The notes beneath the pieces are model-generated. The model did no database searches. It was not told the DNA's origin and saw nothing but the letters and a program-made list of their open reading frames with translations. The translations under genes and the position numbers were made by a program. This document shows, in pieces, positions 7,599 to 63,075 of a stretch of 64,000 nt of DNA. Source of the DNA: Squalus acanthias (Eukaryota); NCBI GenBank assembly GCA_030390025.1, contig CM059438.1, forward strand, positions 744,001 through 808,000, given 5' to 3'. How positions within the stretch are numbered: position 1 is the first letter of the stretch; each line of letters opens with the position of its first letter.

Positions 7599-7715
7599 TG
7601 GGTAGTTATTCACTGGGTATTTATTCACTTCACCCGACGAAGGAGTAGTAAGCTCCGAAAGCTTGTGATTTCAAATAAAACTGTTGGACTATAACCTGGT
7701 GTTGTGCGACCTCTC
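7599..7715 (+). mobile_element. Penelope-like pLTR fragment, family A, with degenerate hammerhead (CCGACGA core)
   Basis: tcac-CCGACGA-aggag...ctcc-GAAA-gctt-gtga followed by tttcaaataaaactgttggactataacctggtgttgtgcgac. TSD tatttagac at 7590-7598 and 7716-7724. Confidence 0.75.
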
Positions 7716-16200: not shown

Positions 16201-18331
16201 CAGTGAAGCAGAGGCTGGCCACAATCAGTTCACTTTACATTAAATAATAAATTCATTTAAAATATCATAAATAATTCAACAGAATTTTTTCCCAAGTCAC
16301 AGAGAAATGGATATGAAAAATTCAGGAGAACTTCTTCCTCACATTTCTTCTCCAAAAGAAACAATATGAAATGCTGAAAACATTTTGCCTGAAGTTGATA
16401 TTTGTCTTGTCTGACAGCCTATTTTAAAGAGGCGGGATATAGAAAGCTGGCAATTACACGTCAGTGTAAGCTGCACGAGTGTTTATGTTTTGTAGAACCC
16501 ATTGTTTTCAGAAGTCCTTTCTGTTGAATTCATGGAGAATGTTACATTACTAGAACCAAGCAGTTTCTGTAAGCAATTTTTGGGAAAATTAATGCTTTAA
16601 CAAAGGAAGTGAATGAGTAGGGTTTAAATACATCAAACAAAAATCACCTCCAGTAAACAGCTACTGCAATATACTATAATGGGTTATGAATCTTTATAAA
16701 TAAGGCTATAAGGCTACTGATCATAAAGAGGTGAGAAAGTCTCATAATACAATATTACAGTGAAGGTACCGCTTTCTCCATTTGATGTGAAGTAGTTGTG
16801 CATAATTAGGTATGAAGTATTAAGACAATTACAGTACAAGCACAGCACGATACAGTCAGCCATTTCACTGACATGAGTGAGCTGTGTTCTAGGTGAGCAC
16901 TAGCATACAATCTACTATCTTTTCTCTTGTGTTTTGATTCAGATCCATCCCCAAGCCATTCTCTGGCCAGAATATATTTTGTTAAACTTGTAGCTTGATG
17001 TCACCACCCTCTTATACTTAGAAGCTGAGGAACTGTTTCAATTTTAACTCTTCCTATAGATACACAATTGTGTGTTTTTAAGGCAGTCACTTCAGATGAC
17101 TAAACTGAAGCAAACATGTAGTCAGCACAGAAACAGTGGTGATCTGCCCCAAGACCACCACAAGCAAGCCTTGGTAATTGGATGTCAGGTTCCAGAAATT
17201 TTCCCAGCACATTTATGTACTGACTATTTCAAAATTATTATATGCACAAAAACAAATAATGAATCACAAATTAGGCATGAAAATTATACAACAGTTTAAC
17301 TACTGCAACACATTTTAGAATTTTGAAATGCAGACTTAAGAAAAAAGGGGCAAGGTGCATCGAAATGTCCAATTGAATAAAACCACCTATTATTAAATTT
17401 CTTATCACAATTATCTGATCGGTATTAAATCTTTACTCTCACATTAACACTTTCTATCGTATGCAGGTTGAAATTATTAGAGTTCTTGAGTTGCTTTAAC
17501 AGAAGACCTGGAGCCTTTCACCGTCACACATTAAGGTACTTTTACAATGATGCTGGGGCACCGGTCAGGGCCTGCGATTTTGGAATGCCATTCTGCTCTT
17601 TAGTTTACCAGCATGGCACCAGTCAGCAGCTTATGTATTTCCAAACTTAGGGAACTTTATGATGCCTTTCCCTCTTAACAAATATATGGCTGTACATTAA
17701 CAAAAGTAGTGACTGCTAATATGGTCTCCAGTTAAGCAACCAGCATTACACCTAGAAGAGCCGGAAGTTGTTTAAAAACTACATTAAGAACCTGTTACGA
17801 TGAATTTAAGGTGCAACACTAAAGATTAAACAAGATGTGAAAAGTTGAGTAAATTTAAAAGCTCCATGGTGCACTATCGCGGTGCATATCCATGTTAATG
17901 GAAAACATGTACCATCTTGATCAACATTTCATTTGCTTAGATGCAAATGTTAAATACCCCTCCTTCCAGTAAAAATAAATAAAATGTGTATGTAAAGTCC
18001 AATGAAATATCCTTGGAAAAAATGAGGGGGTTTAAAATAAACTGCCTTTTAGGCAGCAAAACTGCATTTCTATGGTAACTTGGTTATTTAAATAAAGTTA
18101 TCTTCATAGCATCAGTTCCTTTGTCAACTTCTTCGAATCAACAGGAACGGCAGTTATCAATTATTCTATCCCATTTATATGTAGCCAAGAGATCAGTTGA
18201 TACTTAACAATGACGAATACGGAACTGTTATTCAGTGCGTGCATGAAGCCACAAAACCTAACATGTCTGTCAAAACCAAAATATGCTGCTTTTCATGATT
18301 TGTCAACACACAACTACACTAGATCAAGACA

Positions 18332-18914
18332 CCTCCGTTCAGTCCGTAAGGGGGACCCCGAGCTCCCGGTGGCCTGTCACTTTAATTCACCGCTTCACTC
18401 CCACTCTGACCTCACCGTCCTCGGCCTATTACACTGTTCCACGGAAGCGCAGCGTAAGCTCGAGGAACAGCACCTCATCTTTCGTTTAGGCACGCTACAG
18501 CCCTCTGGACTCAATATCGAGTTCAACAATTTTAGATCATAACCTCAGCTCCAATCACATTTATATTTTATTTTTATTTGTCCCCCCCCCCACCTTTTTT
18601 TTTCCTCCTAGAAGCTGGCAGCTGTCCTTCATTCTGCCAGTGGATTTCACACTTCATTCAGCCTTAATCTGTCACATTAACACCACCTCTAGCCTTGCAT
18701 ATCTCTTAATGTCTCTTAATGTCTCTTCATCTCCCCCTTTGTTCCTTTATCCCCTCCCCCTTTTCCCAGCTTTACCCTGGCCTTAAATCTATTTGATTTC
18801 CGGCTCTTCCCAGTTCTGATGAAAGGTCATCGACCTGAAACGTTAACTCTCTTTCTCTCTCTCCACGGATGCTGCCTGGCCTGCTGAGTTTTTCCAGCGT
18901 TTTCTGTTGTTATT
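18332..18914 (+). mobile_element. Penelope-like retroelement 3' end: GIY-YIG endonuclease C-terminus plus pLTR with hammerhead motif (family B)
   Basis: ORF 18210..18542 part HLRSVRKGDPELPVACHFNS...RKLEEQHLIFRLGTLQPSGLN is typical of PLE GIY-YIG. 13-bp TSD ctagatcaagaca at 18319-18331 and 18915-18927. Confidence 0.9.
18812..18848 (+). ncRNA. Minimal type-I hammerhead ribozyme motif (PLE-associated)
   Basis: AGTT-CTGATGA-a-AGGTC atc GACCT-GAAA-CGTT-AACT: stem I AGTT/AACT, 5-bp stem II, palindromic AACGTT stem III. Confidence 0.7.
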
Positions 18915-32765: not shown

Positions 32766-34494
32766 TTATTAACTCTAAGTACTTACCTACAAGTCATCAC
32801 CATAGGCAAGATTGATACAAAATTTTTTTTTTTTTTTTTAAATGGTAACTTTTTTTTTAAGTTGTTACAGCGCTGTTCTATGGAGCCAATCTGTCCATTC
32901 CAGTCAACAATCAAGTGGGAACAGTCTGACTGAGGGCTGCTTTTAAAAATATATATCACTGAATATTTCCTGTCTGTTAATAAATACTAAGCAGAGAAAA
33001 CAGCAGGCAGCCACAATCAGTCTGAAGATATAGATCCACAATAAGTGACTGGCATCATCATGGCATCCACTGCACCCTTAACTTTGGAACCCTGTAAATG
33101 TAGGCACCTTTTCAAAAAAGAAAGTTCTTTTAAAGGTTAACACCAAACATGTAGCATCTGGAAACAAGTGCTGTTTTTAAATGCTGCAAATAGGATATTA
33201 TACAATCACCATGGAAATACAAGGGAAGCAATAGTGGCTTGGAGTCATTTATGAATAAAATCGGCTTTACAAATAACTGTTCCTTTCCAGAATATAGTAT
33301 TGCTTTTATAAAAAAAAACTTGATATAAAAATTTATTGTTCTATTACAATTTTACACTGTGTAGTGTTAATGGACCTCTGAAATATGGAACTGCAATAAT
33401 TTACAAAGTACCATTCCTATAAGAGGCAATGTACTCTGCAAGAAAACATGACATCCTGAAATCAAAGGGTTAATGCTCCAAAATCTCTCATTTTTGCAGC
33501 AGGCATGGGCTTTGTTGGTTTACTTAAACTCAAATCACAAACAATCTGTTCAATGTTTGACGACAGGGTTATTTTAATGGAGCCCAGAGGAGCACTTGTG
33601 CTCACAAAACTAAATAAAGAACGTACACTCTGTGTTCCTATTCAGCTGGACTTCCAGTGAACAATGCACACTCCGCCCAGTTGAGTCCTAAAATGACACT
33701 CTGTGCGTCGTAGGGCCTGGATTTGCATATTAAAATGGCCTACGGCCGCACTCAGGCAGGTGCTCTGGTTGGAGCCATTCCTGGAGGTTTGATCACATGG
33801 CATCTGCAACTGTTACTGCATCTCCCTCCATATCTCCTTAGACTCTGGCTCTGTGTGAAGGTGACGACTCTGAACTGGGAGCCTCAGTCAGAGCTGATCT
33901 GTATTTGGACTTCACACATTGAAACCGGCTGGCATGGACCAACATGAACCAAACCGAGAGATCGCACAAAGTGCAGGGGGCTCAGTGTTTGGGGCACTTC
34001 TCACAGGGTACGTCTTCCTAAACTCAGCTCAGCACCAACGTTTCTAAACTACTCTCTGGGCTCAGACTCAATGAAAGAGTTTCCATAGAATGATAGAAAT
34101 TACAGCACATGAGGCAGCCATTCGGCCCCGGTGCCCGTGCTAGTGCTCTCTCCTGTAACTCCATTCCCCCCATGATGCTTTTATATCCCTCCTCTTCAAA
34201 TATTTATCTCATTCCCTTTTTAAATGATGTTTCAGTCTGTCTCAATAGCCAATACGGTGAAGCATCCTATGGTCCAATAGCCCTCAGTTCAAAAATCTTC
34301 CTTCTCCCCTCCCCCTTGGTTCTTGCAGTAGGAATCCTTGGTTTTGGTCTCTATTTACCCACAGTAAAGTCCCCGAGTTTCACGCACCCCTTAACTGGCT
34401 GCTCCTCTCGGCGCCGCTCCCACTCACCAAGTTGCTGCTGCTGCTCCCAGTTCTACAGGAAATGCTGGTCCCCATGCCCATCCCATTCCAGAAT

Positions 34495-35240
34495 CTCCCT
34501 CCCGACCCCTCACCCCCGATCCCTATTCCTGTCTCCCTCGCTCCCCCAATCCTCCCGACCCCTCACCCCCGATCCCTATTCCCCAGTCCTCCCGACCCCT
34601 CATCCCGATCCCTCAGTCTCCTTCCCTTCCCCCGATCCCTATTCCCCAGTCCTCCCGATCCCTATTCCCCAGTCTCCTTCCCTTCCCCCGATCCCTATTC
34701 CCCAGTCTCTCCCTTCCCCCAATCCCTATTCCCCAGTCTCCCTCTCCCCCAATCCTCCCGACCCCTCACCCCAATCCCTATTCCCCAGTCTCTCTCCCTT
34801 CCCCCGATCCCTATTCCCCAGTCTCCCTCTCCCCCAATCCTCCCGACCCCTCATCCCCGATCCCTATTCCCCAGTCTCCCCCTCTCCCCAATCCTCCAGA
34901 CCCCTGACCCCCAGTCTCCCTCTCCCCCAATCCTCCCGACCCCTCATCCCCAATCCCTATTCCCCAGTCTCCTTCTCCCCCAATCCCTATTCCCCAGTCT
35001 CCCTCGCTCCTCCCAATCCTCTCGACCCCTCACCCCGATCCCCATTCCCCAATCCTCCTGACCCCTCACCCCGATCCCTATTCCCCAGTCTCCCTCGCTA
35101 CCCCCAATCCTCTCGACTCCTCACCTCCGATTCCTATTCCCCAATCTCCCACTCTCCCCCAATCCTTATTCCTGTCTCCCCCTCTCACCCAACCCCATCC
35201 TCATTCACCAGTCTCTTCCTCTCACCCCTGACTCCCAATC
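34495..35240 (+). repeat. C-rich composite minisatellite (CCCCGATCCCTATTCCCCAGTCT / CCCCAATCCTCCCGACCCCTCA modules)
   Basis: Repeated modules visible directly. Explains the Pro/Ser-rich ORFs 34109..35275 and 34432..35061. A hAT-like end, ggagagttggcaacccta, is at 35308-35325. Confidence 0.9.
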
Positions 35241-36156: not shown

Positions 36157-36256
36157 CCTTTGGCTAGAATAGCAGATGAGGAGCAGCCCAGGGACCTGCT
36201 CGAGGAAACATTGCTGGCACAAGGACTCTTCTTAGTAGACAGATCAAGCACTCCAT
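36157..36256 (-). CDS. LCOR: LCOR coding exon (presumed exon 6; 100 bp), DGVLDLSTKKSPCASNVSSSRSLGCSSSAILAK(G), second CtBP motif
   Basis: tttctccag acceptor, AGG|gtaagc donor. Matches LCOR DGVLDLSTKKSPCA. Phase 1/2. Confidence 0.95.
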
Positions 36257-36309
36257 CTGGAGAAAGAAACACAGATGTCAACACCCCCAGACTGACAGGT
36301 TGATGGGGG

Positions 36310-36410
36310 AAAAAAATGAGAAGTCGCACAACACCAGGTTATAGTCCAACAGTTTTATTTGAAATCACAAGCTTTCGGAGCTTTCGTAGCTCCTTCGTCA
36401 GGTGAAGTGA
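36310..36410 (-). mobile_element. Penelope family-A pLTR insertion (about 100 bp)
   Basis: 13-bp TSD aggttgatggggg at 36297-36309 and 36411-36423. Near-identical to 44627-44716. Confidence 0.85.
36365..36405 (-). ncRNA. Minimal hammerhead ribozyme motif, intact core, LCOR-sense
   Basis: Minus strand: TCAC-CTGACGA-a-GGAGCT acgaa AGCTCC-GAAA-GCTT-GTGA. Confidence 0.7.
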
Positions 36411-37109
36411 AGGTTGATGGGGGGTGGGTGCACTTTTTTTTTTTGCAACTTCATACATGTCTTTCTAAAATACTAAGAAAGTGAAATTAATCAGAGTTAA
36501 AAAAAATCTAGCTCTTCAGTGCAATGAAACACCATCAACTGTGCAGCACAATTTCATAATGAGGTCATTATTGCTTTCTCAAGTCACAAACAAGCTAACG
36601 CCCTACAAGATCCACAATTTCAATGCTGGCAAGTTAAAAATAACCAAACACTGGAATGGATTGCTCCTGGGGTACAGTTGCTGCAGTTTGATTTTTTTCT
36701 GAACCAGCAGTGCCCGTCTCCCTGCCAATTTTTAGGAACCAGACCTGCTGTCGACACTCAAAATTGTCATCTAATTATATAATGACACCTTCCATTTTCA
36801 ACACCTCCCAATAAACACATTCGATAGTATCTGGAGATACAAGGGTAAATTTTCCTTCCCCTAACTTGACTTCCAGTTCAATTGTACGTCAATATTGTCA
36901 CGGGTACCCATATTACTTTAATTAGCTGAAACAGAATGGCTTAATCTATGCTGAGGAGCATGAGTAGCACCATAACACTAACGTAACTTGGCTGGGATTC
37001 CAACTGGGAGTTTCAGAGAAAAACACACAGACATAGAGGGTGCATGGGGTAGAACTCACAGGGCACAAATACATTATTGGATTATATAGTTCGGGCATCA
37101 GCAACAAAT

Positions 37110-38150
37110 GGAGTGGCCAGAATTGGACAGTGCTCAAGGTGTAGTCTGACCAGAGCATTGTACAGTTTGAACATGACTTCCTTTGATTTGCACTCCACAA
37201 TTTTGGCTATATAATTCAATATTCCATTGACTTTGTTGATGTTGCTCTGCATTGGTTGCACATCTGAAGCATCAAGTCTACTGAAATCCCTAGAACTCTC
37301 TCAAATTCATCTTTAGCTATTTCAACACCATTCATGGAGTACTTCACCCATTTTTATTTCCTATGTAGGGTATTTTTCACTTGTCCATGAAAAATTCCAT
37401 CTGCTATTGCTCTGCACCCTTATATATTTTGTCCAACTTCTGAGCTGGCTCCTCCCAATCCACTGTCCCTCCTAAATTGATACCAAATTTTATCAATCTG
37501 CATTGAGTTCCTGAATCCAGGTCATTGATATAAATTGGAAACAGTAGCAATCCCAAAACTGATCCCTGGGCACCCCACTAAGTACTTGACAAACTCCAAC
37601 ACAATTCCTCTAACAAGTATTTTCTGTTTTCTACCCAAGATTTATCCTGAAGCCCCACAATTTGAGTTTAACTAATCACCTTTTTTTTTTAAATGGAGCT
37701 TTGTCAAATACTTTTTGGAATTCTAGGTACACCACAACGTATGGCTTTCCATCGGACACTTAGGATGACACTTCCTCAGAAAAGTCAAGGAGATTCGTCA
37801 GATAGGTCCTTCCCTTTTTTAATCCATAGCGGTTTCTATTTACTAACTTTTTATTGAATAGATAATCCTCAATTTACTCATTCATCAATTCCACTATTGT
37901 ACACAGGATAGTCGAAAGACAAATACAGTAGTTCTACAGTTGTCCATGTCTGCTGTCACCATTTTTGAAAACAGACATCACGCTAGCCTGTTTCTAATCT
38001 GCTGCTCCTTCCTCAGCGTCCAGTGACTTCATCACAATGATGGTCCATGCCTCATAGCTCTCCTGCCTAGTCTCTCAATACTCTAGGATAAATATTATCT
38101 ATCTCAGGGGACTTAATTATTTTGAGCCATTTTAGCTCGTCTTTTATGAC
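37110..38150 (-). mobile_element. Old degenerate CR1 RT fragment
   Basis: Residual motifs: tcattgatataaat...actgatccctggggcaccccacta (GVPQGS-like antisense) and tttgtcaaatactttttggaattctaggtacacc (YLDFQKAFDK-like). Confidence 0.65.
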
Positions 38151-38329
38151 AAAGTAATTAATTCTGCTTCAGTTATCTCTGCTTGGAAAGGGCATGTTGC
38201 TCATGTCTTCTTCCCTTGTGAATACTTGGGAGAGTGATCGCTCAGATTTTGTGGTCTTCCTTCGTTTCAAGCTGTTCATATCTTTTATGGTTATTACCTC
38301 TTCTCTAACTGCCCTCTTACTGTTGAAGT

Positions 38330-38790
38330 CTGCTGCCAGTATCCTAACTCAGCAAGTTTAGTTCACCCATCACCCCCCGTGCTCACTGACCTACATTGGC
38401 TTCCGGTCCGGCAACGCCCCGATTTTAGAATTCTCATCCATGTTTTCAAATCCCTCCATGGTATTGCCCTTGCCTATCTCTGTAATCTCCTCCAGCCCTA
38501 CAACCCTCCGACATCTCTGCGCTCCTCCAATTCTGGGATCTTGCGCATCCCCGACTTTCATCACTCCACCATTGGCGGCCGTGCCTTCAGCTGCCTAGGC
38601 CCTAAGTTCTGGAATTCCCTCCCTAAACCTCTCTACCCTCCTTTAAGACACTCCTTAAAACCTACCTCCATCTGCCCCAATATATCATGTGGTTTGGTGT
38701 CGAATTTTGTTTGATAACGCTCCTGTGAAGCAGCTTGTGACGTTTTACTACATTAAAGGCACAATATAAATGGAAGTAGTAGTTGTTGTT
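38330..38790 (+). mobile_element. L2 LINE 3' end
   Basis: ORF 38379..38714 LTDLHWLPVRQR..FRILIHVFKSLHG..YL...GGRAFSCLGPKFWNSLP is typical of the L2 ORF2 C-terminus. L2 tail present. Confidence 0.88.
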
Positions 38791-39016
38791 ACTGAAAGAA
38801 TTTCTTAACTTTAGGTTTTATCTCTGCAGCTATACTCTTTTCTGAATCTCTCTTTGTCCCTCTGACCGTTCTCAACATAGTAACAGTTTCAGGCAGCAGA
38901 AAACTTTCAGCCCATCTATCCACAGTATTCCCTTGGTGCATTTCTAATAACCCTGAATCCCATTTGTTGACAAGAACCTGTCTAGTTCTTTCTTGAAATC
39001 CATTAAGGTTTCTTGG

Positions 39017-39195
39017 TCATAAAAACAGAAAATGCTGGAAATACTCAGGTCAGGCAGCATCGTCAGACAAAAGGTCATCAACCTGAAACATTAACTCGGT
39101 TTCTCTCTCCACAAATGCTGCCTGACCTGCTGAGTATATCCAGCATTTTCTGTTTCTTTTTCAGATTTCCAGCATCCGCAGTATTTTGCTTTTGT
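39017..39195. mobile_element. Penelope family-B pLTR insertion with inverted 5' segment
   Basis: 15-bp TSD attaaggtttcttgg at 39002-39016 and 39196-39210. aaaacagaaaatgctggaaatactcag is inverted against ctgagtatatccagcattttctgttt. Confidence 0.82.
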
Positions 39196-40527
39196 ATTAA
39201 GGTTTCTTGGCCCACTATCCATGCTGACAATATGTTCCACATACTTACCATCCTTTTAGTAAAATAATTTCCACCTTCATTTCCTATTTGTTGTCCTTAA
39301 CTTGTAAATATGACGCCTTGTCCTTAAATTCTGTACATGGCAGAAAAACTTACTAGATCCAATTTGTTCAAACCTTTCATAATTTTAAGCACTACTAACA
39401 TAGCCCCTCTCAGTCTTCTCTTTCAAGAGAGAAAAGACGTAGGGTAGTCCATCTTTCCTCGTAAGTCATTGCCTTACATTCTGGCATCAAATCTGTAAGC
39501 CATTCTCGGTACCCCGCCCCCCCACCCATTAACTGAATTTTTTGAAATAGGGAGACCAAATACTGCAGATGTAGAGCTTGGAATTATAAAGCTGTGAAGC
39601 ACTTTGGGACATCCTGAGGTCGTGAAAGGCACTATATCAATGCAAGTTCTTTCTTTCGATCTTACATACTTTCAAAAAAAGAATCAGGAGCTAATGATAA
39701 TCACATTTCTGGAAACCTAGGAACTCCTCCCATCTAAATAAAATTCACATAGGTTGCCATAAAACTGTGCAGAAAAAAGTGTATTTGACTGCTTAGAATA
39801 AACACTGAGGAGTATGTTTGTACTCCTAGGGATTGCTCTTATAGCTATCCATCCGTGGCACTAGGCACTCTGCTACCCCTGACAATGCTGTGTCACTGTC
39901 ATATATGGGTAGAGATTATTTTGAAAACACTGTTTAGGTTCATTAATTTATGCTTAATTTTTTTAAGTTTAATTTTGAAAAACATATAATCACTCCAGAT
40001 CTAGATACCCAAGCTGTACTCAGCAAAAATATCTCTTACTCCAGGTAAACTTTTATCAGTCCAAAATTTAAAGAAAAACAAATCTACATAGAAATTGGTC
40101 ATACAGATAGAAAATGGCAGAAATTCACAAGTGTGTCAGCATCTGAGTAAAGACTAGTTAACACTGTAGACAGCATTTCACTCAAAACTTTTTCTCAGAT
40201 GCTGATGTGCCAACTGTTTCATTTTCAGTATTTTTATTCCTTTTTCAAAATTTTCAGCATTTGCCATGTTTTACTTTACGTATGGATAAGAATGTACCAC
40301 ATCAATTTGCACTTAGCATTTATTAAAACAATCTGGTGGACAGATTACATCCTTTCTTACACTGCTGGAGGACATTGAAAAGCTTCAATATTGCAAACAT
40401 AGCCTCAACTGGGAAAGCATCACATAATGGCTCTAATTAATATACGGAGTGACTCCTGGCAACGAATCGGAAACTGCGCAGAAACGTTCTGCGCATTAAT
40501 CTGGAAATTTCGATGATGTTTCTGCTT

Positions 40528-41138
40528 GGCCCGCTCCCTGTTCCCGACATTTCAGGCCCGCTCCCTGTTCCCGACATGACAGGCCCGCTCCCTGTTCCCG
40601 ACATTTCAGTCCCGCTCCCTGTTCCCGACATTTCAGGTCCGCTCCCTGTTCCCGACATTTCAGTCTCGCTCCCTGTTCCCGACATTTCAGTCTCGCTCCC
40701 TGTTCCCGACATTTCAGTCTCGCTCCCTGTTCCCGACATTGCAGGCCCGCTCCCTGTTCCCGACATTGCAGGCCCGCTCCCTGTTCCCGACATTGCAGGC
40801 CCGCTCCCTGTTCCCGACATTGCAGGCCCGCTCCCTGTTCCCGACATTGCAGGCCCGCTCCCTGTTCCCGACATTGCAGGCCCGCTCCCTGTTCCCGACA
40901 TTGCAGGTCCGCTCCCTGTTCCCGACATTGCAGGCCCGCTCCCTGTTCCCGACATTGCAGGCCCGCTCCCTGTTCCCGACATTGCAGGTCCGCTCCCTGT
41001 TCCCGACATTGCAGGCCCGCTCCCTGTTCCCGACATTGCAGGCCCGCTCCCTGTTCCCGACATTGCAGGTCCGCTCCCTGTTCCCGACATTGCAGGCCTG
41101 CTCCCTGTTCCCGACATTGCAGGCCTGCTCCCTGTTCC
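40528..41138 (+). repeat. 27-bp minisatellite (GGCCCGCTCCCTGTTCCCGACATTGCA), about 22.5 copies
   Basis: 9-aa periodicity in four ORFs (PLPVPDIAG, SGTGSGPAM, CREQGAGLQ, QARSLFPTL). Variant TTTCA units cluster at the left end. Confidence 0.95.
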
Positions 41139-41396
41139 CAAGATTTCTCTGTTCGCCAGAAATGCATTAAACTCAAACTGAGCCTCCAAAACTTTCTCCA
41201 GACGACATGATGTCCACGTTATTTTATAAAGTTTCATCCCAATTAAAAAGTAAACAGAACCTATACAAAATAAGCATTTCTGATATGACTGACAGCCTCT
41301 TCACAGAGTAACGAACAGTCACTGCAAACAGCTTCACAGCATATTTTCACCGAACAGTTTAAAAAAACAACATTGGAACCACCAAAAAACACAGAC

Positions 41397-41427
41397 TGCG
41401 CATGCGCAACTACTTCCGGTTCATTGG
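41397..41427. promoter_or_regulatory. Cluster of NRF1 (TGCGCATGCGCA), ETS/GABP (ACTTCCGG) and CCAAT motifs
   Basis: Perfect consensus matches at 41397-41408, 41412-41419 and 41423-41427. Function not shown. Confidence 0.4.
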
Positions 41428-41504
41428 CAGCAGTAGCGTCCTTCTAATTAAGGCTTCAGGGACTGATTAATCCACTAGGGGACAGAAAGGATTAGTTGTA
41501 ACAA

Positions 41505-42400
41505 AGTAGATGACACAAAACTTGGAAGTATAGTGAACAGTGAGGAGGATAGTGATAGACTTCAAGAAGACATAGACATGCTGGTGAAATGGGCGGGCAC
41601 GTGGCAGATGAAATTTAACACAGAAAAGTGAGAAGTGATACATTTTGGTAGGAAGAACAAGGAGAGGCAATATAAACTAAAGGGTACAATCCTAAATGGG
41701 GTGCATAAACAGAGAGACCTGAGGGTATATGTGCACAAATCATTGAAGGTGGCAAGGGCAGGTTGAGAAGGCAGTTTTTTTTAAAAAGCATACAGGATCC
41801 TGGGCTTCATAAATAGAGGCATAGAGTACAAAAGCAAGGAAGTTATGATGAACCTTTATAAAACACTGGTCCGACCTCAACTGGAGTATTCCAATTCTGG
41901 GCACCACAATTTAGGAAGGATGTGAAGGCCTTAGAGAGGGTGCAGAAAAGATTTACGAGAATAATTCCAGGGATGAGGGACTTCAGTTACGTGGATAGAC
42001 TAGAGAAGCTGGGGTTGTTCTCCTTAGAGCAGAGAAGGTTGAGAGGAGATTTGATAGAAGTGCTCAAAATCATAAGGGGTCTAGACAGAGTAGATAGAGA
42101 GAAACCGTTACCATTGGTGGAAGGGTCGAGAACCAGAGGACACAGATTTAAGGCGACATGAGGAAAAACTTTTTTACGCAGCGAGTGGTTAGGATCTGGA
42201 ATGCACTACCTGAAAGGGTGGTGGAGGCAGGCTCAATCTTTCAAAAGGGAATTAGCTAAGTACCTGAAGGAAAAAAAAATTGCAGGGCTACGGGGAAAGG
42301 GCGGGGGAGTGGGACGAGCTGAAGTGCTCTTGCAGAGAGCCGGCACGGGCTCGATGGGCCAAATGGCCTCCTTCTGTGCTGTAACCATTCACTGATTCGA
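41505..42400 (+). mobile_element. CR1 LINE 3' fragment
   Basis: gatgacacaaaacttgga (DDTKLG). ORF 41922..42161 ALERVQKRFTRIIPG...RRLRGDLIEV. CR1 tail. Confidence 0.9.
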
Positions 42401-43375
42401 TGTAGATGTTTCTCTAATGAACAACTTGCATTTATATAGCCCCTTTAACATAATAAAAATGTTTTAAGGCACTGCACAGAAACGTGATCAGACAAAACAT
42501 GACACCACAACATGTGGAGTCACCTAATGATGAAGGATTCGATTGGTCATCATATATTTTACATCAGAGAAAGGCACTTCTCTCCATTATTTGTTGTGTG
42601 TTCTTTGCAATTCTTAATACCCGCTGACAACAGCTTGTGAGCAAATCAGTCTGTTCTCTATGGTTCTCATAGAATTCCACAAAGAACAAAAGTCCTGAAT
42701 AGATGTCACGTCTGCGGAACATTACTTGCAGCCCAAGCAGGTCCCTTTTATAAAACATTGCATAGTCTAGAACTGAATAGGAAGCTGGGATTTCTAGCTT
42801 CAAATATGCACCAGACATCTAGTTACTCCAAAATAAGATCAATACTCCAAGATTAGACAACACACTTGAACAAGATTCAAGCTAGCCAACCAGGATATTT
42901 TCAGCTAACATTAGGTTTACTCTGGGCCTCAGTTCGTACACTGGAGGGACAAGAGTAGAAATAAAACAATAATATATTCAAAAGATGTTACTCCCCTGTA
43001 ATAAAACAACAACTTGCATTTTTATAGTTCCATTCTGTTCTCATCCGATCTTCACACACACACATTTTACCAGGGGGCCACTGGACTGCGATCAGGAGCA
43101 AGATTCCTCTCCTTAACCCAGGGCCTCTAAACCCAATTGTAGTGTACAAACTATCACTCCAAACAAGATCAGCTAGATCAGCATAGACCGGGAATCAAAC
43201 CTGGATCCTTTCGTGTCGTTTAGTTACATGCTGCCTTCATTTTATAAATATTGAAAGTACTCCCTCGCACTTATCTTTTCCTTTAATTATAAGAGATATT
43301 GGTATATATTGTTGGAAGGACACAATAAAATACAAATACGAGCTAGAATTGGTCTTAAACCTCCTTAAACAAACA

Positions 43376-43670
43376 ACACAACTACTTGCATTTATACAGC
43401 ACCTTCAATGTAGCAAAATGTCCCAAGGCGCTTCACAGGAGCGATTATCAAACAAAATTTGACACCGAGCCACATAAGGAGATATTAGGGCAGATGACCA
43501 AAAGCTTGGTCAAAGAGGTAGGTTTAAACAAGCATCTGAAAGGAGAAGAGTGTTAGAGAGGTGAAGAGGTTTAGGGAGGGAATTCCAGAGCTTAAGGCTT
43601 CGGCAGCTGAAGACACGGCCACCAATGGTCAAGCGATTAAAATCAGGGATGCGCAAGAGGCCAGAATTAA
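43376..43670 (-). mobile_element. L2 LINE 3' end
   Basis: Reverse complement of the 38530-38790 element. Confidence 0.85.
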
Positions 43671-44133
43671 TGAGGAGGGAAGTTGCAATTGCCCATCCTC
43701 CTAGTTCCAGGATATGAGCAGCACTTTGGAAGGCAGGGAGGTTTAGGAGTAAAAGAAAAAACTAAAATAGTAAAAAGTTATGCATATAGAGTGAAATCCA
43801 AATATAGAACCTCACTTTGAAATACTACAATCTCTGATAAAAGCCCACTCAGGTTTTTTTTTTAAACTGAGAAATCATATGAAATATTCTCTTTTCCCAT
43901 GCACCTCATTGCAATACAAGAGACTAGGCTGTAGAACTCGTGCAGCTCCCAAAAGCCAGCCTTCAAAGAGAAGGTTGAATGCATTTCCAATTGGAACACA
44001 AGCAGACCCTGGTTACAAATCAGACTAAAAATCACAATGTTGCATTGAAATATCCACCCACTCCCATTTGCTCAGAGGAAACCACTGTAAACAAAAGAAA
44101 TCTACTACAGATATGTAGAAACTGTACACTTAC

Positions 44134-44406
44134 CTTGATTGTCCGATTCAGAGTTAGACTTTTTGACAGTTAGATCCAAAGGTCTATCTTGGTCAGCCAT
44201 AAGAAGCTTGCTTAAAACAGGATTTAGAGCACTCGCACCGAGCACAGGCGTTTTAGATGCACTTGGGTCCTTAGTGCTGGTGAGTACAATAGAGTCCTGA
44301 GAAGTGCTAGTTTTTGAGGTATATTCAGCAGCAAACTGCCTGATCATTCGATGCATAATCTCACGAGCCACTAAAGGAATATTGGGGTCCGCAACCCGTG
44401 GGCTGT
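44134..44406 (-). CDS. LCOR: LCOR coding exon (presumed exon 5; 273 bp) with NR box LSKLL and CtBP-binding PLDLT motif
   Basis: tttgcag acceptor, AAG|gtaagt donor. DSPRVADPNIPLVAREIMHRMIRQFAAEYTSK...NPVLSKLLMADQDRPLDLTVKKS matches human LCOR MQRMIQQFAAEYTSK...NPVLSKLLMADQDSPLDLTVRKS. Confidence 0.96.
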
Positions 44407-44626
44407 CTGCAAAGGAGAGAAAAAAAAGTTACTATTTTCTCGGAAATGACAATTCTTTCCTCCCGAGATGGAGGAATAGGGCTGAAGATCCCTCTCCAAG
44501 ATGTCTTGGAAGCTACAGTATCCAGCATTTAATAAACAGGCTTATTGGAGATACCACTAGCTCACAATAAGTCTCTCTCTTACCTGTCTCATTCCTCTTT
44601 ATTTTTCCATATCCTAGTTTAACTTG

Positions 44627-45012
44627 TGAGAAGTCGCACAACACCAGGTTATAGTCCAACAGTTTTATTTGAAATCACAAGCTTTCGGAGCGCTGCTCCT
44701 TCGTCAGGTGAAGTGAAGAGATGTATATAGGCACAGCATATATAGTCAGAGAACACTGCCAGATGATTACAGTTAATCTTTCTAACTGCCCTTTATCACA
44801 CCTCGGGCAGTTAGAAAGATTAACTGCAATCATCTGGCAGTGTTTTCTGACTATTTATGCTGTGCCTATATACATCTCTTCACTTCACCTGACAAAGGAG
44901 CAGCGCTCTGAAAGCTTGTGATATCAAATAAAACTGTTGGACTATAACCTGGTGTTGTGCAACTTGTCACATTTGGCCACCCCAGTCCAACACCGGCATC
45001 TCCACATCATGG
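44627..45012. mobile_element. Penelope family-A insertion forming a long palindrome (arms 44625-44791 and 44805-44971, 13-nt loop)
   Basis: Arms are reverse complements with a few mismatches. 13-bp TSD ctagtttaacttg at 44614-44626 and 45013-45025. Each arm holds a hammerhead motif. Confidence 0.9.
44675..44711 (-). ncRNA. Minimal hammerhead ribozyme motif, intact core, LCOR-sense
   Basis: Minus strand: TCAC-CTGACGA-a-GGAGC agc GCTCC-GAAA-GCTT-GTGA. The + strand twin (44885-44921) has a mutated CTGACAA core. Confidence 0.7.
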
Positions 45013-45511
45013 CTAGTTTAACTTGATACAAGTATTATAGAATTAGCAGTTTTATCAGAGATTGGTGTCCAAGTAAGACTCCAAACCATCCGATATAAAC
45101 ATCTTAAAGGATCTGTTCAAATAGTTGTTTGATTGGCAGCTTTTCTGAATATAATAGTTTTTTAAACCAGTCACGTTTTGGACATATTTAATGTTTTATC
45201 TGTCTGAACCCCTCAAAGAGATAGTCAGAGCAATTGCTCCCATAGACAGGAAAAACAAGAGAAAGCAACTTCTACCTAGGAATATTGCTTATATCAAAAT
45301 TTAGCACAGCAGTCACAAAATATTTATTAAATTCTACTACAAGAAGCTATCCAAGCATAATAACTACTATAAAAATATATGTACCGTTACTGCCATTGTC
45401 CTTTTACTGCTTAATAAATTTACTTGGCAGTTGAAGCCCAAGTCCAAATCTAGTGCAGTGTTATTCTGCCACCTTCCAAAGACAAGGTAAATCATGTAAG
45501 GAAATAGGTTT

Positions 45512-59278: not shown

Positions 59279-62089
59279 CTTATGGAAAAACAATTACGAC
59301 AATGTGAGTACAAACAGAATTGTCCTGGCAACAACATGCAGGAGCTGAAACAGTAGGCATTAATTTCACAATTATATATCTGCCAACTCGTGCTATATTT
59401 ATTATTACAGGCATCGGACTGTGATTAATAGAGCTGCTCAGTATATTTATAGACATAAAAAATGTTGGCAATTTTAAAATGTCAGCATTAATATTTTTAA
59501 GAAATGCAATTCAGCTGGAGAGCAACTTCACAAAACAATCCTTGCTAACACCCTGTATATTAAAAAGAAATGTCATCGTAGGGTAGACAGGATCTGTGAT
59601 GTTTTATTTTAGATAACAACGTTTTACTCTGCATCTAACCAAGCTATGCTTGACCTGGTAGTGCTTGATGCAATCACTAGTTTATACCAGATGTGTACAA
59701 ACATCTGTTTTCTCCAGCATGTATCCATCAACAACAGGACAACTGGAACTGACCAACTTTCTACGAAAAGAATCACCAATGGAACATCAGATCTGGAATA
59801 CTTTAAATAGTTCAACATTTATGTCAAATTATGTCATTAAATACATGTTTGGGCGAGGAAGATTTATGCATTTTGTGCACCAATCTTTTAAGCAGTACTG
59901 CATGATATTGGTTTTGATCGAGCCACCACATGTCACCTTTCAGCTATTTGCATTGGTCATTGAAAAGTTCACAAGCCTGGACTAAACCAAACTTCCAAAT
60001 ACAGGAAGTTGCATGATGGTTTTATACAGGAGAATGGGAGAGAGAGAAAGAAATGTGGAAACAGGAGCATATTGTTACATTAAGAATGTGGAAAAGTACA
60101 GACAAAACGTCGGCATGGACTGGTTGGGCCGAATGGCCTGTTTCTGTGCCGTATATCCTATGTAATCCTATGCAATGTAAACCAAGCAATCACTGGACCG
60201 CAACTGTCTATTCCCCCTACGGACAGTTACCTCCATGTATTTTTCCCAAACTCAGATAATAAACAAATAGCATGTGGACATATATGCAGAACTTCCAATT
60301 AACACAGTTTCACACCACCAACCAAGACATTCAGGAATCCCACATAAATCGCCTAAATCCACTGATATTCCTTTGGATGTTGAGTCTGGCAAGGAGAACT
60401 TCTAAAATCTTTTCTTACAACAACATTTTTCTGCTTTTTGGTCTTATTTTCTTTATATATTTATGTGTTTATTTTCCATTACCTTTTCTTTACTCTTCCA
60501 CTCATTTTATTTTTGTCAACAGTCGCAATTGCAACTTGATTATTAAACTGTTCTTTATAATGATGACTTTCCTTTATTTATTTATATTTTTTCTGTACTT
60601 TTGTGTTAATAAAAGGCATTTTTAAATATATAAAAATTATAATTAATCTATCCAAAGCCCTTGCTGTTCAGCAACATTCAGAGAGAGCAAGAGAGACATG
60701 GAGAAAGAAAGTGTGAGCTCAAAAAGAGCAGGTGTCTTCCAGGATTTACAGCTTCATTTAGAAGATCTTTGCTGGCTTTGATTTCCATGTCATAACCAGT
60801 GGATAAGCCTGTTGCTGAAACTTACGACTACTGTATTTGCAGTCCCCTTGCACAATGAGTCTATGTGCACAATGTCTGACACTCCAGTATTTACTGTAGG
60901 CTGCAGTTGGTGTATGGGAGTTGTCTAAGCAACCCTGGCAGCTAAAGCAATACAGGAGAATTCAACAAACTCTACTTACACAGTCAGTGTCGGGAAAGCT
61001 GTGCCAGTGACTCCGGCCTCGGCTACCAAATACTGATTTGAAAAGCATATTTCTTGGGATGTTCAATTAATCCAATATCCGCAAATGTTAATACTTTTAA
61101 TCTGTAATATATACTGATCATATTATTTCCTGGTAATCAACTCTTCATTACTGAACAAATTTACAGTCACAATTATGGATCCTTCAGTATGCACATCAAG
61201 ACTCAGCACACTTGCCATCAACTTGTTCCATGACAGTCGGTGTTGGCGAAAAGGCCCAAAACAGTTCATCAGTTATCCGAAACTTCCCTCTCACCAATTG
61301 CTGTCATCTGCCTGCTTTCTCATTTATTACATTTTTGGAATAAAATGCCATGACATCACACAGGAGGGATCTCTGTATAAAATTACCTATATCCAGGCTT
61401 CCTTTAACAAGCAAATATATAAAACACTACACGTCCTTCAAAAATATTTCCAACTATATTATTCTATATAACAAAGAAGTGGAGTTTGGGAGAGGGGAGA
61501 ATGGTCATTTTTGGCATGTTTCTGTTTGAAATCAATGAATATTTCATTGTCTCTTACACTGTATTATGAAAAACAGTTACCCCAGTGATTTCAATGCTGT
61601 AATCTAAGGGTTCAAGTGATGGTTGTAAATGACTGAAGATTCAATCTTGCTTAGTCCACCTCTACTTTAATAAAACAAATGCAAATGACTTGCCAGGTGA
61701 CATACTCAATGCACAACCGACACTAATACACTCACAGTAACAATTTAACTCAATCAAGAATTGCAACTTTTAAAAAGACATTGTAGTTTGCACAGGGGTC
61801 ACAGTACAACTCCGGAGGCACCCCATGGACAGGATGCACATTCTAAGAATACAAGATTATCCATTCAGAGAAAACAATCACCATGATCTTCAAAAGCAAT
61901 GATTTAAGACTTCCCCATGGGTTTGCTTCTCCTTTTCCCTCCCCCCCAAAAAATACTGATACCACACAACAGTAATCCAGTTTACATGCACACACCACTA
62001 CACATTTTCTAATCAAATGTTTTAACTGGTAAATCACTCACTCTGGATAATCTAGAAAGAAATGTGACTACTCCTGTTCCTAACTTACA

Positions 62090-63075
62090 TCAATGACATG
62101 GATTCAGAGCAACCTGGTCAGATTTGCAGATGATACCAAACTAGGAGAGGCAATGGAATCAAAGGAGGCAGCCCAGAAGTCACAAAATGAGTTGGATAAA
62201 ATGTGTAAGTATGAAAAAGAATGGCAGATGAGCAGACAAGTATAAAATACTACACGTAGAAAAGAAAAATGGCTGTCACATACTCCGTAAATGGTGTCAA
62301 AACACTCAAGGGTGAAGCTGAAAGGAGTCTTAGTAGACAATGCTCAAGGGTCAGGATTTGCTTCCTCTGTGCTCCCAAGCCTGCAACGTTCTGCTAGCTA
62401 ATTTTAAATGGGTGGAAAATCGCTGGGCTGGAAACACAGAAGCAGAAATTCTGGTCAAACATGTCCAACCAACGTACAACAGCAACCAACAATGCCAATA
62501 GATTGTTGAACTATGTCGCCAAAACAGCAGAATACAAGTCGAGAGGAAGTTGGAGTCAAACTGTATAGTGCTCTGGTCAGACTACACCTTGGGTACTGTG
62601 ACTAGTTCTGGTCACCGGGACACAAGAGAGACATTTTAGCACGAGATGAAGTGCATAGAAGTGCTATAAAGCTGATCTCAAGTGTTAAAGGCCCGAGTTA
62701 TAAGTTTGTTAGCTTGAAAGAAGACCTTTGAGAGCTAGTCTTCTAGAGGTGTAAAGAATAGCAAATGGTATGGAAAAGGTAAATTCAGAAAATTCATTTC
62801 AAATTAAATGAGTGTATGACAAGGGGACACTAATAAAAGGAAATTTTAGGACTGATACCAATTAATATTTATCCAGAGTGATCAATACATGGAATGGACT
62901 CCCAGTTACAACAGCGGATGCAAAATCCCTCCAGTTCTGACGAAAGGTCTTCGACCTGAAACGTTAACTCTGTTTCTCTCTTCACAGATGCTGCCTGACC
63001 TGCTGAGTATTTCCAGCATTTTCTGTTTTTATTGCAAAATCCCTGGATTCAGTTCAGAAACAGTTGGATGCTAAA
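62090..63075 (+). mobile_element. Old degenerate CR1 fragment
   Basis: tttgcagatgataccaaactagg (FADDTKLG) and ctggtcagactacaccttgggtactgtg (LVRPHLEYC-like). Confidence 0.7.
62931..63032 (+). mobile_element. Penelope family-B pLTR with intact hammerhead core (62933-62969), nested in old CR1
   Basis: AGTT-CTGACGA-a-AGGTC ttc GACCT-GAAA-CGTT-AACT. 12-bp TSD tgcaaaatccct at 62919-62930 and 63033-63044. Confidence 0.85.

Follow-up and report, generated by a model that had tools for sequence, protein, structure and literature searches.

The window, i.e. the whole 64-kb stretch of Squalus acanthias DNA that was analysed, carries the gene LCOR on the - strand (93% to the LCOR of Heterodontus). Exons were mapped by tblastn with skate and coelacanth proteins, and their boundaries were taken from splice contexts. 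Four minimal hammerhead ribozyme motifs with an intact core are present in the window, two sense and two antisense to LCOR. The sense motifs, copy 1 and copy 2, are found in introns 5 and 4, each inside an insertion derived from a Penelope-like element (PLE).

7599 to 7715, + strand: third family-A stub, antisense to LCOR, with a hammerhead at 7630-7668 (core U4>C) and a 9-bp TSD (7590-7598/7716-7724)
18812 to 18848, + strand: family-B minimal hammerhead, core intact, antisense to LCOR, with a fragment of the endonuclease end of a PLE (18201-18542) upstream of it
36157 to 36256, - strand: LCOR exon 6, 100 nt (splice contexts and tblastn)
36297 to 36309 and 36411 to 36423: 13-bp TSD of insertion 1
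36310 to 36410, - strand: insertion 1, a 101-bp 5'-truncated pLTR stub of the family-A element, without tail or inverted arm
36365 to 36405, - strand: copy 1, a minimal type-I hammerhead with an intact core and a predicted cut at 36369/36368
44134 to 44406, - strand: LCOR exon 5, 273 nt, with identical start and end phase (splice contexts and tblastn)
44614 to 44626 and 45013 to 45025: 13-bp TSD of insertion 2, single copy at the empty site
44627 to 45012: insertion 2, a single 386-bp fold-back of two inverted 5'-truncated pLTR arms with a 13-nt spacer and a tail
44625 to 44791, - strand: sense-strand arm of insertion 2, tail-less, containing copy 2
44675 to 44711, - strand: copy 2, minimal hammerhead, core intact, predicted to be sequestered in a 167-bp hairpin, predicted cut 44679/44678
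44805 to 44971, + strand: antisense arm of insertion 2 with a decayed hammerhead (44885-44921), preceding copy 2 in the LCOR pre-mRNA
44972 to 45012, + strand: PLE 'tail', about 40 bp, continuing into the 5' end of the element ORF and matching the ORF start of full-length copies
62933 to 62969, + strand: family-B minimal hammerhead, core intact, antisense to LCOR

The hammerhead motifs and their parent element

Both copies have the attributes of the minimal hammerhead (min-HHR) class described from metazoan Penelope-like elements in 2014 (Cervera and De la Pena, PMC4209133). The CUGANGA and GAAA-NN-UH core boxes are intact (CUGACGA and GAAA in either copy), helix I is within the 4-5 bp of the class, helix II contains G10.1-C11.1, and position 9 is followed by an extra nucleotide, in both cases a single A before stem II. 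Helix III is lacking, and 15.2-16.2 is palindromic. Stem I has 4 bp in both copies, stem II 6 bp in copy 1 and 5 bp in copy 2. The predicted cut sites are located 112 nt upstream of exon 6 (copy 1) and 272 nt upstream of exon 5 (copy 2). A preliminary description of the window had placed core-intact hammerheads at 36365-36405 and 44675-44711 on the LCOR sense strand, about 110 and 270 nt before the exon-6 and exon-5 acceptors, with 13-bp TSDs and with nothing but a palindrome as stem III, all of which was confirmed. Its observation that the + strand family-A copies carry core mutations also holds: 44885-44921 has two substitutions at CpG sites, G8>A and C11.1>U, and 7630-7668 has the change listed above. 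However, it had counted copy 2 and 44885-44921 as separate copies. Each sequence is real, but the second TSD encloses both, and they are the arms of one fold-back insertion, a single 167-bp inverted repeat (95%). It had also passed over the two core-intact family-B motifs antisense to LCOR. An Rfam scan of the window gave four matches at E<=5 and none to a hammerhead; for motifs this reduced, no score was to be expected.

Both LCOR motifs derive from the terminal repeat of a young and very abundant Penelope-like element, of which they are fragments. The family-A ORF is absent from the window, where only repeat fragments are found. Full-length elements are located elsewhere in the genome: 921-codon frames adjoin the same repeat in all five loci inspected, and four of these have direct repeats at a distance of about 3.1 kb. 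The motif is thereby placed within the flanking repeats of an element encoding RT and GIY-YIG. The whole ORF matched RVT_1 in Pfam (E=1.3e-8) as its sole domain, and GIY-YIG was matched by the C-terminal piece only, at 22.8 bits against a cut-off of 22.6; a PDB sequence search with the ORF gave 0 matches. The translation has the CX2-5CxxC linker and the cysteines within GIY-YIG known from Neptune/Nematis-type elements, and insertions of the family display the 5' truncation, inverted arm and 30-40 bp tail of EN+ Penelope-like elements (Craig et al. 2021, PMC8557442). The earlier assignment to the Penelope-like minimal type-I hammerheads, a class that requires dimers, is supported and can now be tied to full-length RT + GIY-YIG elements. 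Copy 1 is 98/99 identical to a repeat adjoining an element ORF elsewhere in the genome. Insertion 1 is 97.9-100% identical to 13 dispersed genomic copies (99/99 to four of these), and the exact copy-1 motif occurs 39 times genome-wide. An 18-nt word from the tail of insertion 2 has 38,136 exact copies in the genome.

Within a class known since 2014, the locus is an unremarkable case from a shark; sharks are not named in the parts of PMC4209133 that were consulted. In the open literature we found no report on shark Penelope hammerheads, although the species tables of that paper may include cartilaginous fish, and no paper joining LCOR and a hammerhead. The shark element resembles PAc of Anolis in having a pLTR hammerhead around the ORF start and a tail at the ORF 5' end, whereas PAc belongs to the Poseidon clade and has been assayed (Frangieh et al. 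2024, PMC11167929). According to the accessible part of that study, the PAc hammerhead cuts only with its own protein, has no RNA-seq ends at the site and is dispensable for insertion in vitro. A non-LTR retrozyme was considered and rejected: it needs at least two consecutive hammerhead units in tandem (bioRxiv 10.64898/2026.07.22.740005), and the copies in the LCOR window are solo or inverted.

Predicted folding and history of the insertions

Stems I and II of copy 1 would form, helix III being absent; in the local context, stem I is predicted with a probability of 0.5-0.8 and stem II of >0.9. The hairpin of insertion 2 has a predicted MFE of about -297 kcal/mol, with 36 of the 37 nt of copy 2 paired to its own upstream antisense arm at a probability of about 1. 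The antisense arm, being made first, would zip copy 2 into the 167-bp hairpin, leaving no ribozyme fold. Releasing the copy-2 motif is predicted to cost 74 kcal/mol and to regain 10.8 kcal/mol.

For the isolated copies 1 and 2, the predicted heterodimer MFE is a double-hammerhead-like fold with an energy equal to that of two monomers. The active cis double hammerhead is predicted at -21.4 kcal/mol versus -23.9 kcal/mol for two monomers, thus 2.5 kcal/mol less stable with loop cost excluded, and the 8,269-nt (8.3-kb) loop between the copies would cost about 6 kcal/mol extra. An intermolecular palindrome helix of 4-6 bp is predicted to yield -2.5 to -4.3 kcal/mol. A long-range pairing of the antisense arm with copy 1, spanning exon 5, is predicted at -147 kcal/mol, but the local hairpin (-296 kcal/mol) is predicted to outcompete this.

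The site orthologous to insertion 2 is empty in all three related organisms compared, two of which have the family elsewhere; species-specific insertion was among the outcomes that the preliminary description had named as refuting its proposal, and insertion 2 shows it in this comparison. Another sample of the shark itself also has both junctions of insertion 2, which may therefore be fixed in the species. The sense arm agrees with the majority consensus of 19 genomic copies at 167/167 positions, and derived changes number 0 in the sense arm versus 8 in the antisense arm; a second method gave the same antisense-heavy skew (6 versus 0, with 2 not placed), and the nominal p for the skew is about 0.008-0.03. 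A general arm asymmetry was rejected as its source, as changes in 59 other fold-back pairs are divided 44 versus 40 between the arms. Among the five pairs with at least five changes, none has all of them in one arm and three have all but one. An A-to-I signature was likewise rejected, only one of the eight antisense-arm changes being A>G on the RNA strand. The fold-back form is common in the family (59 of 90 tail-bearing insertions).

Abundance, strand and chance expectation

The strict family-A pattern has 19,217 copies in the genome, the family-B pattern 20,574, and general cores 79,533 versus 418 for the control; such cores number about 100,000 in the genome. Cervera and De la Pena (PMC4209133) give ~4,000 cores for coelacanth and ~9,000 for Xenopus, obtained with different search methods. 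In 464 kb around LCOR there are 21 folded motifs (12 minus, 9 plus).

The excess of intact cores on the sense strand, on which the preliminary description had made its proposal depend, was not seen around kinase exons, where 12 of 27 motifs are sense and 15 antisense (p=0.70); this sample of 80 kinase regions is small and of low power (95% CI for sense 0.25-0.65). Family-A cores at these loci are intact in 7/10 sense and 10/14 antisense cases. Two sense copies flanking an exon were also found in one of the 80 regions, and all 12 sense motifs are more than 500 nt away from the centre of their region, where the matched exon is located. With insertion taken as uniform and the acceptors as 200,000, the number of cases expected genome-wide in which two consecutive acceptors each have a sense core at <300 nt is 0.11 for strict family-A and 1.9-2.9 for all cores. 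The arrangement at LCOR is thus only modestly expected by chance.

The amniote hammerheads of RECK, CTCL and DTNB are likewise type I, intronic, on the sense strand and by hypothesis retroelement-derived (PMC6155905). These are conserved across birds and mammals, whereas at LCOR insertion 2 does not occur in close relatives, and both motifs have thousands of nearly identical mobile counterparts. Neither is an active monomer fold predicted at LCOR.

Passengers or functional ribozymes

The LCOR motifs are scraps of a young, very abundant Penelope-like element that inserted independently in introns 4 and 5, and we consider it probable (about 0.85) that they are silent passengers. As truncation would always spare the 3' end, where the hammerhead would lie, intact cores would reflect the youth of the copies and not selection at LCOR. 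Lacking helix III, copy 1 would not be expected to cut unless a nearby free partner or element protein is present. A rare slow cut at copy 1 would likely be tolerated by splicing; hammerhead-cut introns are still spliced (PMC2995048, citing Dye 2006 and Fong 2009). The predicted hairpin lock and the empty orthologous site of insertion 2 point to likely passengers rather than a splicing switch. Several observations count against this reading: the skew of 0 versus 8 changes between the arms, the low chance expectation for two consecutive acceptors, the lack of sense motifs near the matched exons of the kinase regions, the double-hammerhead-like heterodimer fold, the recurrence of insertion 2 in another sample and the small size of the strand test.

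A slight non-catalytic effect on splicing, through the 167-bp hairpin as dsRNA (a possible ADAR substrate) or through splice-like signals in insertion 1, is unlikely. The hairpin, of high predicted stability, ends about 220 nt before exon 5, and a CAG located 35 nt before the exon-6 acceptor is preceded by a branch-like CUCAU (A at 36317) and a U tract, both supplied by insertion 1; the pairing available between the antisense arm and copy 1 also speaks for such an effect. However, the local hairpin is predicted to win over that pairing, fold-backs are ordinary in the family, and use of the upstream CAG would break the reading frame.

It is quite improbable that copy 1 is occasionally cut in trans with the help of free family-A RNA or of the RT/EN protein in tissues where the element is active, which would be a side effect borne by LCOR together with thousands of other genes and no device specific to the locus. 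The copy-1 stems are predicted to form in context, intact element ORFs and ~100,000 compatible cores exist, and the PLE hammerhead of Anolis is protein-assisted; on the other hand, insertion 1 lacks the tail region, in which the RT start site of the Anolis element is located (PMC11167929). Furthermore, the short intermolecular helix argues against trans cutting, and sense copies are not depleted in genes of the kinase sample. With U as the residue at position 17, cleavage would be slow, which also counts against it; no paper on this point was found in the open literature.

Highly improbable is a stronger version, in which copy 1 works as a ribozyme gated by a protein or a partner and links the activity of the transposon to splicing in the host, with the unmutated sense arm of insertion 2 marking early selection at LCOR; active Penelope RNA or protein would then complete helix III and cut copy 1 together with thousands of sense intronic stubs.

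Scarcely credible is the cis-dimer switch of the preliminary description, in which copies 1 and 2 pair via the palindrome across exon 5 and cut or loop the nascent RNA so as to tune exon-5/6 splicing: the intact cores, compatible palindromes, predicted double-hammerhead topology, unmutated sense arm and the length of exon 5, by which skipping would keep the frame, favour it, but copy 2 is predicted to be locked, the dimer less stable than the monomers, insertion 2 is confined to this organism among those compared, no sense bias was seen, and single min-HHRs are inactive and dimers weak in vitro (PMC4209133). Were it real, a corepressor gene would have recently domesticated such an element; the findings argue the other way.

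With the LCOR motifs read as passengers, the presence of about 100,000 intact cores and no visible purge from the sense strands of genes argues that the motifs are nearly silent in host transcripts. The shark genome is also a large natural test of PLE hammerhead cutting in vivo.

The two hammerheads and their host gene

Both hammerheads named in the preliminary description were recovered on the minus strand. Their core boxes are intact, stem I has 4 bp and stem II 5–6 bp, a single additional A is present and helix III is lacking. The 13-bp target-site duplications (TSDs) of both insertions were likewise confirmed in the window sequence, the plus-strand copies carry the core changes ascribed to them, and comparison with homologous proteins identified the host of both motifs as the minus-strand gene LCOR. 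Cleavage is predicted 112 and 272 nt upstream of the starts of exons 6 and 5, respectively; these exon numbers are taken from the preliminary description and are consistent if one further exon lies upstream.

Features of the LCOR region in the window
36310–36410: insertion 1
36365–36405, minus: hammerhead copy 1
44614–44626 and 45013–45025: TSD pair of insertion 2
44625–44791, minus: sense arm of insertion 2
44675–44711, minus: hammerhead copy 2
44805–44971, plus: antisense arm of insertion 2
Near 59279, 56650, 49528, 44406, 36256 and 24147, minus: LCOR coding exons, from homologous proteins
40393–41283: tandem array of about 33 units of 27 bp, in intron 5 between the two motifs
34480–35200: degenerate C-rich tandem repeat, in intron 6

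The intact motifs in the window are two sense and two antisense to LCOR, the latter being minimal hammerheads of a second family. Two long minus-strand frames (437 and 976 codons) lie 12–16 kb past the window start (G000:C14, the contig around the window, about 727,550–732,340), presumably the alternative PALI1-type last exon of LCOR. The first 187 residues of the public Heterodontus LCOR model (P0001) correspond not to exons of LCOR but to repeat-derived sequence found in many places, and the model looks mis-annotated.

Folding and predicted activity

Between the two TSDs of insertion 2 lie copy 2, a spacer of 13 nt, the core-mutant plus-strand copy and a 41-bp tail. Copy 2 and the core-mutant copy are thus one insertion with 167-bp arms of 95% complementarity, which the preliminary description had overlooked. 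Fold-back is the norm for family-A insertions: among the 38,136 tail-bearing places, the first 90 included 59 with an inverted arm within 1.15 kb. In the LCOR transcript the antisense arm precedes copy 2, and the region is predicted to fold at -297 kcal/mol with 36 of the 37 copy-2 nucleotides paired to the antisense arm (P about 1). Freeing copy 2 would cost a predicted 74 kcal/mol, against 10.8 regained by the motif. The repeat in antisense orientation (44879–44971, minus) holds the donor-like words CAG|GUGAAG and CAG|GUUAUA, both inside the hairpin here.

For the isolated motifs, the minimum free energy topology of the heterodimer is a double hammerhead, equal in stability to two monomers (-24.0 versus -23.9). 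The active dimer with a 4-bp helix III is predicted at -21.4, to which the 8,269-nt loop would add a penalty of about 6 kcal/mol, and copy 1 is predicted to be able to form its own stems in local context. The proposal that the two copies act as a cis-dimer ribozyme switch across exon 5 is highly improbable: copy 2 is predicted to be sequestered and the active dimer to be less stable than two monomers, insertion 2 is absent from three other organisms, and intact cores showed no sense excess in the small sample around kinase exons. In the available text of PMC4209133, lone minimal hammerheads are inactive and dimers weak, and that of PMC11167929 describes an Anolis Penelope-like element (PLE) hammerhead that cleaves only with its protein, with no RNA-seq ends at its site. 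The accessible part of PMC2995048 (citing Dye 2006 and Fong 2009) describes splicing as persisting in hammerhead-cut introns and as prevented by a fast HDV ribozyme. Both LCOR motifs are judged likely to be silent.

Two observations count against silence. At all eight differences between the arms of insertion 2 (44625–44971) the antisense arm has the derived state, and the sense arm matches the majority of 19 copies over its whole length; a second polarisation gave six antisense, none sense and two without assignment. Other family-A pairs had no overall skew (44 versus 40 changes). Because family arms usually differ by only 0–4%, the outlier is also read as an antisense-arm excess, and the asymmetry is as much that excess as sense-arm conservation; the unchanged stretch covers all 167 bp, beyond the hammerhead core. 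The skew could stem from selection, from chance, or from a second insertion or a conversion at a later time. The second observation is at 36292–36320 (minus), where insertion 1 supplies a branch-like word, CUCAU (its A at 36317), and a U tract ahead of a CAG; this CAG, 35 nt 5' of the exon-6 acceptor, could possibly serve as a cryptic acceptor shifting the frame.

Abundance and strand

Exact pattern searches of the genome found 19,217 strict family-A and 20,574 family-B motifs. The general core pattern, matched without a check of the stems, occurs 79,533 times, compared with 418 times in a reversed control. Hammerhead pattern density is one per 37 kb genome-wide. Core-intact minimal hammerheads number about 100,000, with many stem-II and loop variants that keep pairing. 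The core is intact in 17 of 23 family-A copies spanning the motif. Within 464 kb around LCOR there are 21 folded motifs, 12 on the minus and 9 on the plus strand.

Vertebrate genomes have about 200,000 splice acceptors. Assuming this number and uniform insertion, about 640–800 acceptors are expected to have a sense core within 300 nt, and 1.9–2.9 consecutive acceptor pairs for all cores, only 0.11 for the strict pattern. The two-acceptor arrangement is uncommon, yet of the order met by a genome-wide scan. Around kinase exons (80 partial-domain matches chosen from 136 Pkinase matches, 10 kb around each, 799 kb in total), intact motifs were 12 sense and 15 antisense (p=0.70), at low power, with flanks assumed intronic and three genes sampled twice. 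Family-A cores there were intact in 7/10 sense and 10/14 antisense copies, and two sense copies flanked an exon in one of the 80 regions.

Age and source element

The exact copy-1 motif occurs in 39 genomic copies. Compared with 12 of these loci and L038, a locus with a PLE frame, insertion 1 is identical over 99/99 positions to four of the 13 and at least 97.9% identical to all. Insertion 2 was examined in four of the 22 runs listed. Contigs of X5, a second sample of the same organism, run into it from both flanks; in X13, X14 and X18, three other organisms from two studies, the site is empty and the flanks are about 94–97% alike, the evidence being one contig per organism that joins about 44613–44622 directly to 45013 or 45049. 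The element family occurs at high depth elsewhere in X13 and X14, and was not found in the X18 reads (organism F). With named relatives in Heptranchias (92%), Scyliorhinus (85%) and Mustelus (80%) and none seen in organism F, the element appears patchily distributed among sharks.

One locus found by the pattern search has a PLE-like C-terminal frame, which lies upstream of its motif. When this frame was used to search the genome, 140 matches were scored among 58,663 candidates, and several of them lie in 921-codon frames. In all five fetched loci (L043–L047) the 921-codon frame begins within the repeat that carries the hammerhead; four of the five have direct repeats spaced by about 3.1 kb, and four have an inverted copy. 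The 5' truncation, inverted arm and tail of the shark insertions are the published PLE insertion pattern. In two short inverted blocks (44937–44998, plus), the tail complements the repeat immediately upstream; this is a likely stem-loop at the 3' end of the element and resembles the one reported at the start of reverse transcription in the Anolis element.

The motifs are real and of a class already known, of which the shark is a new member, with a genome count roughly ten times the highest in the available text of the 2014 paper on PLE minimal hammerheads (PMC4209133). The many near-identical, intact 921-codon copies (95–97% protein identity) suggest that the element has been active recently.
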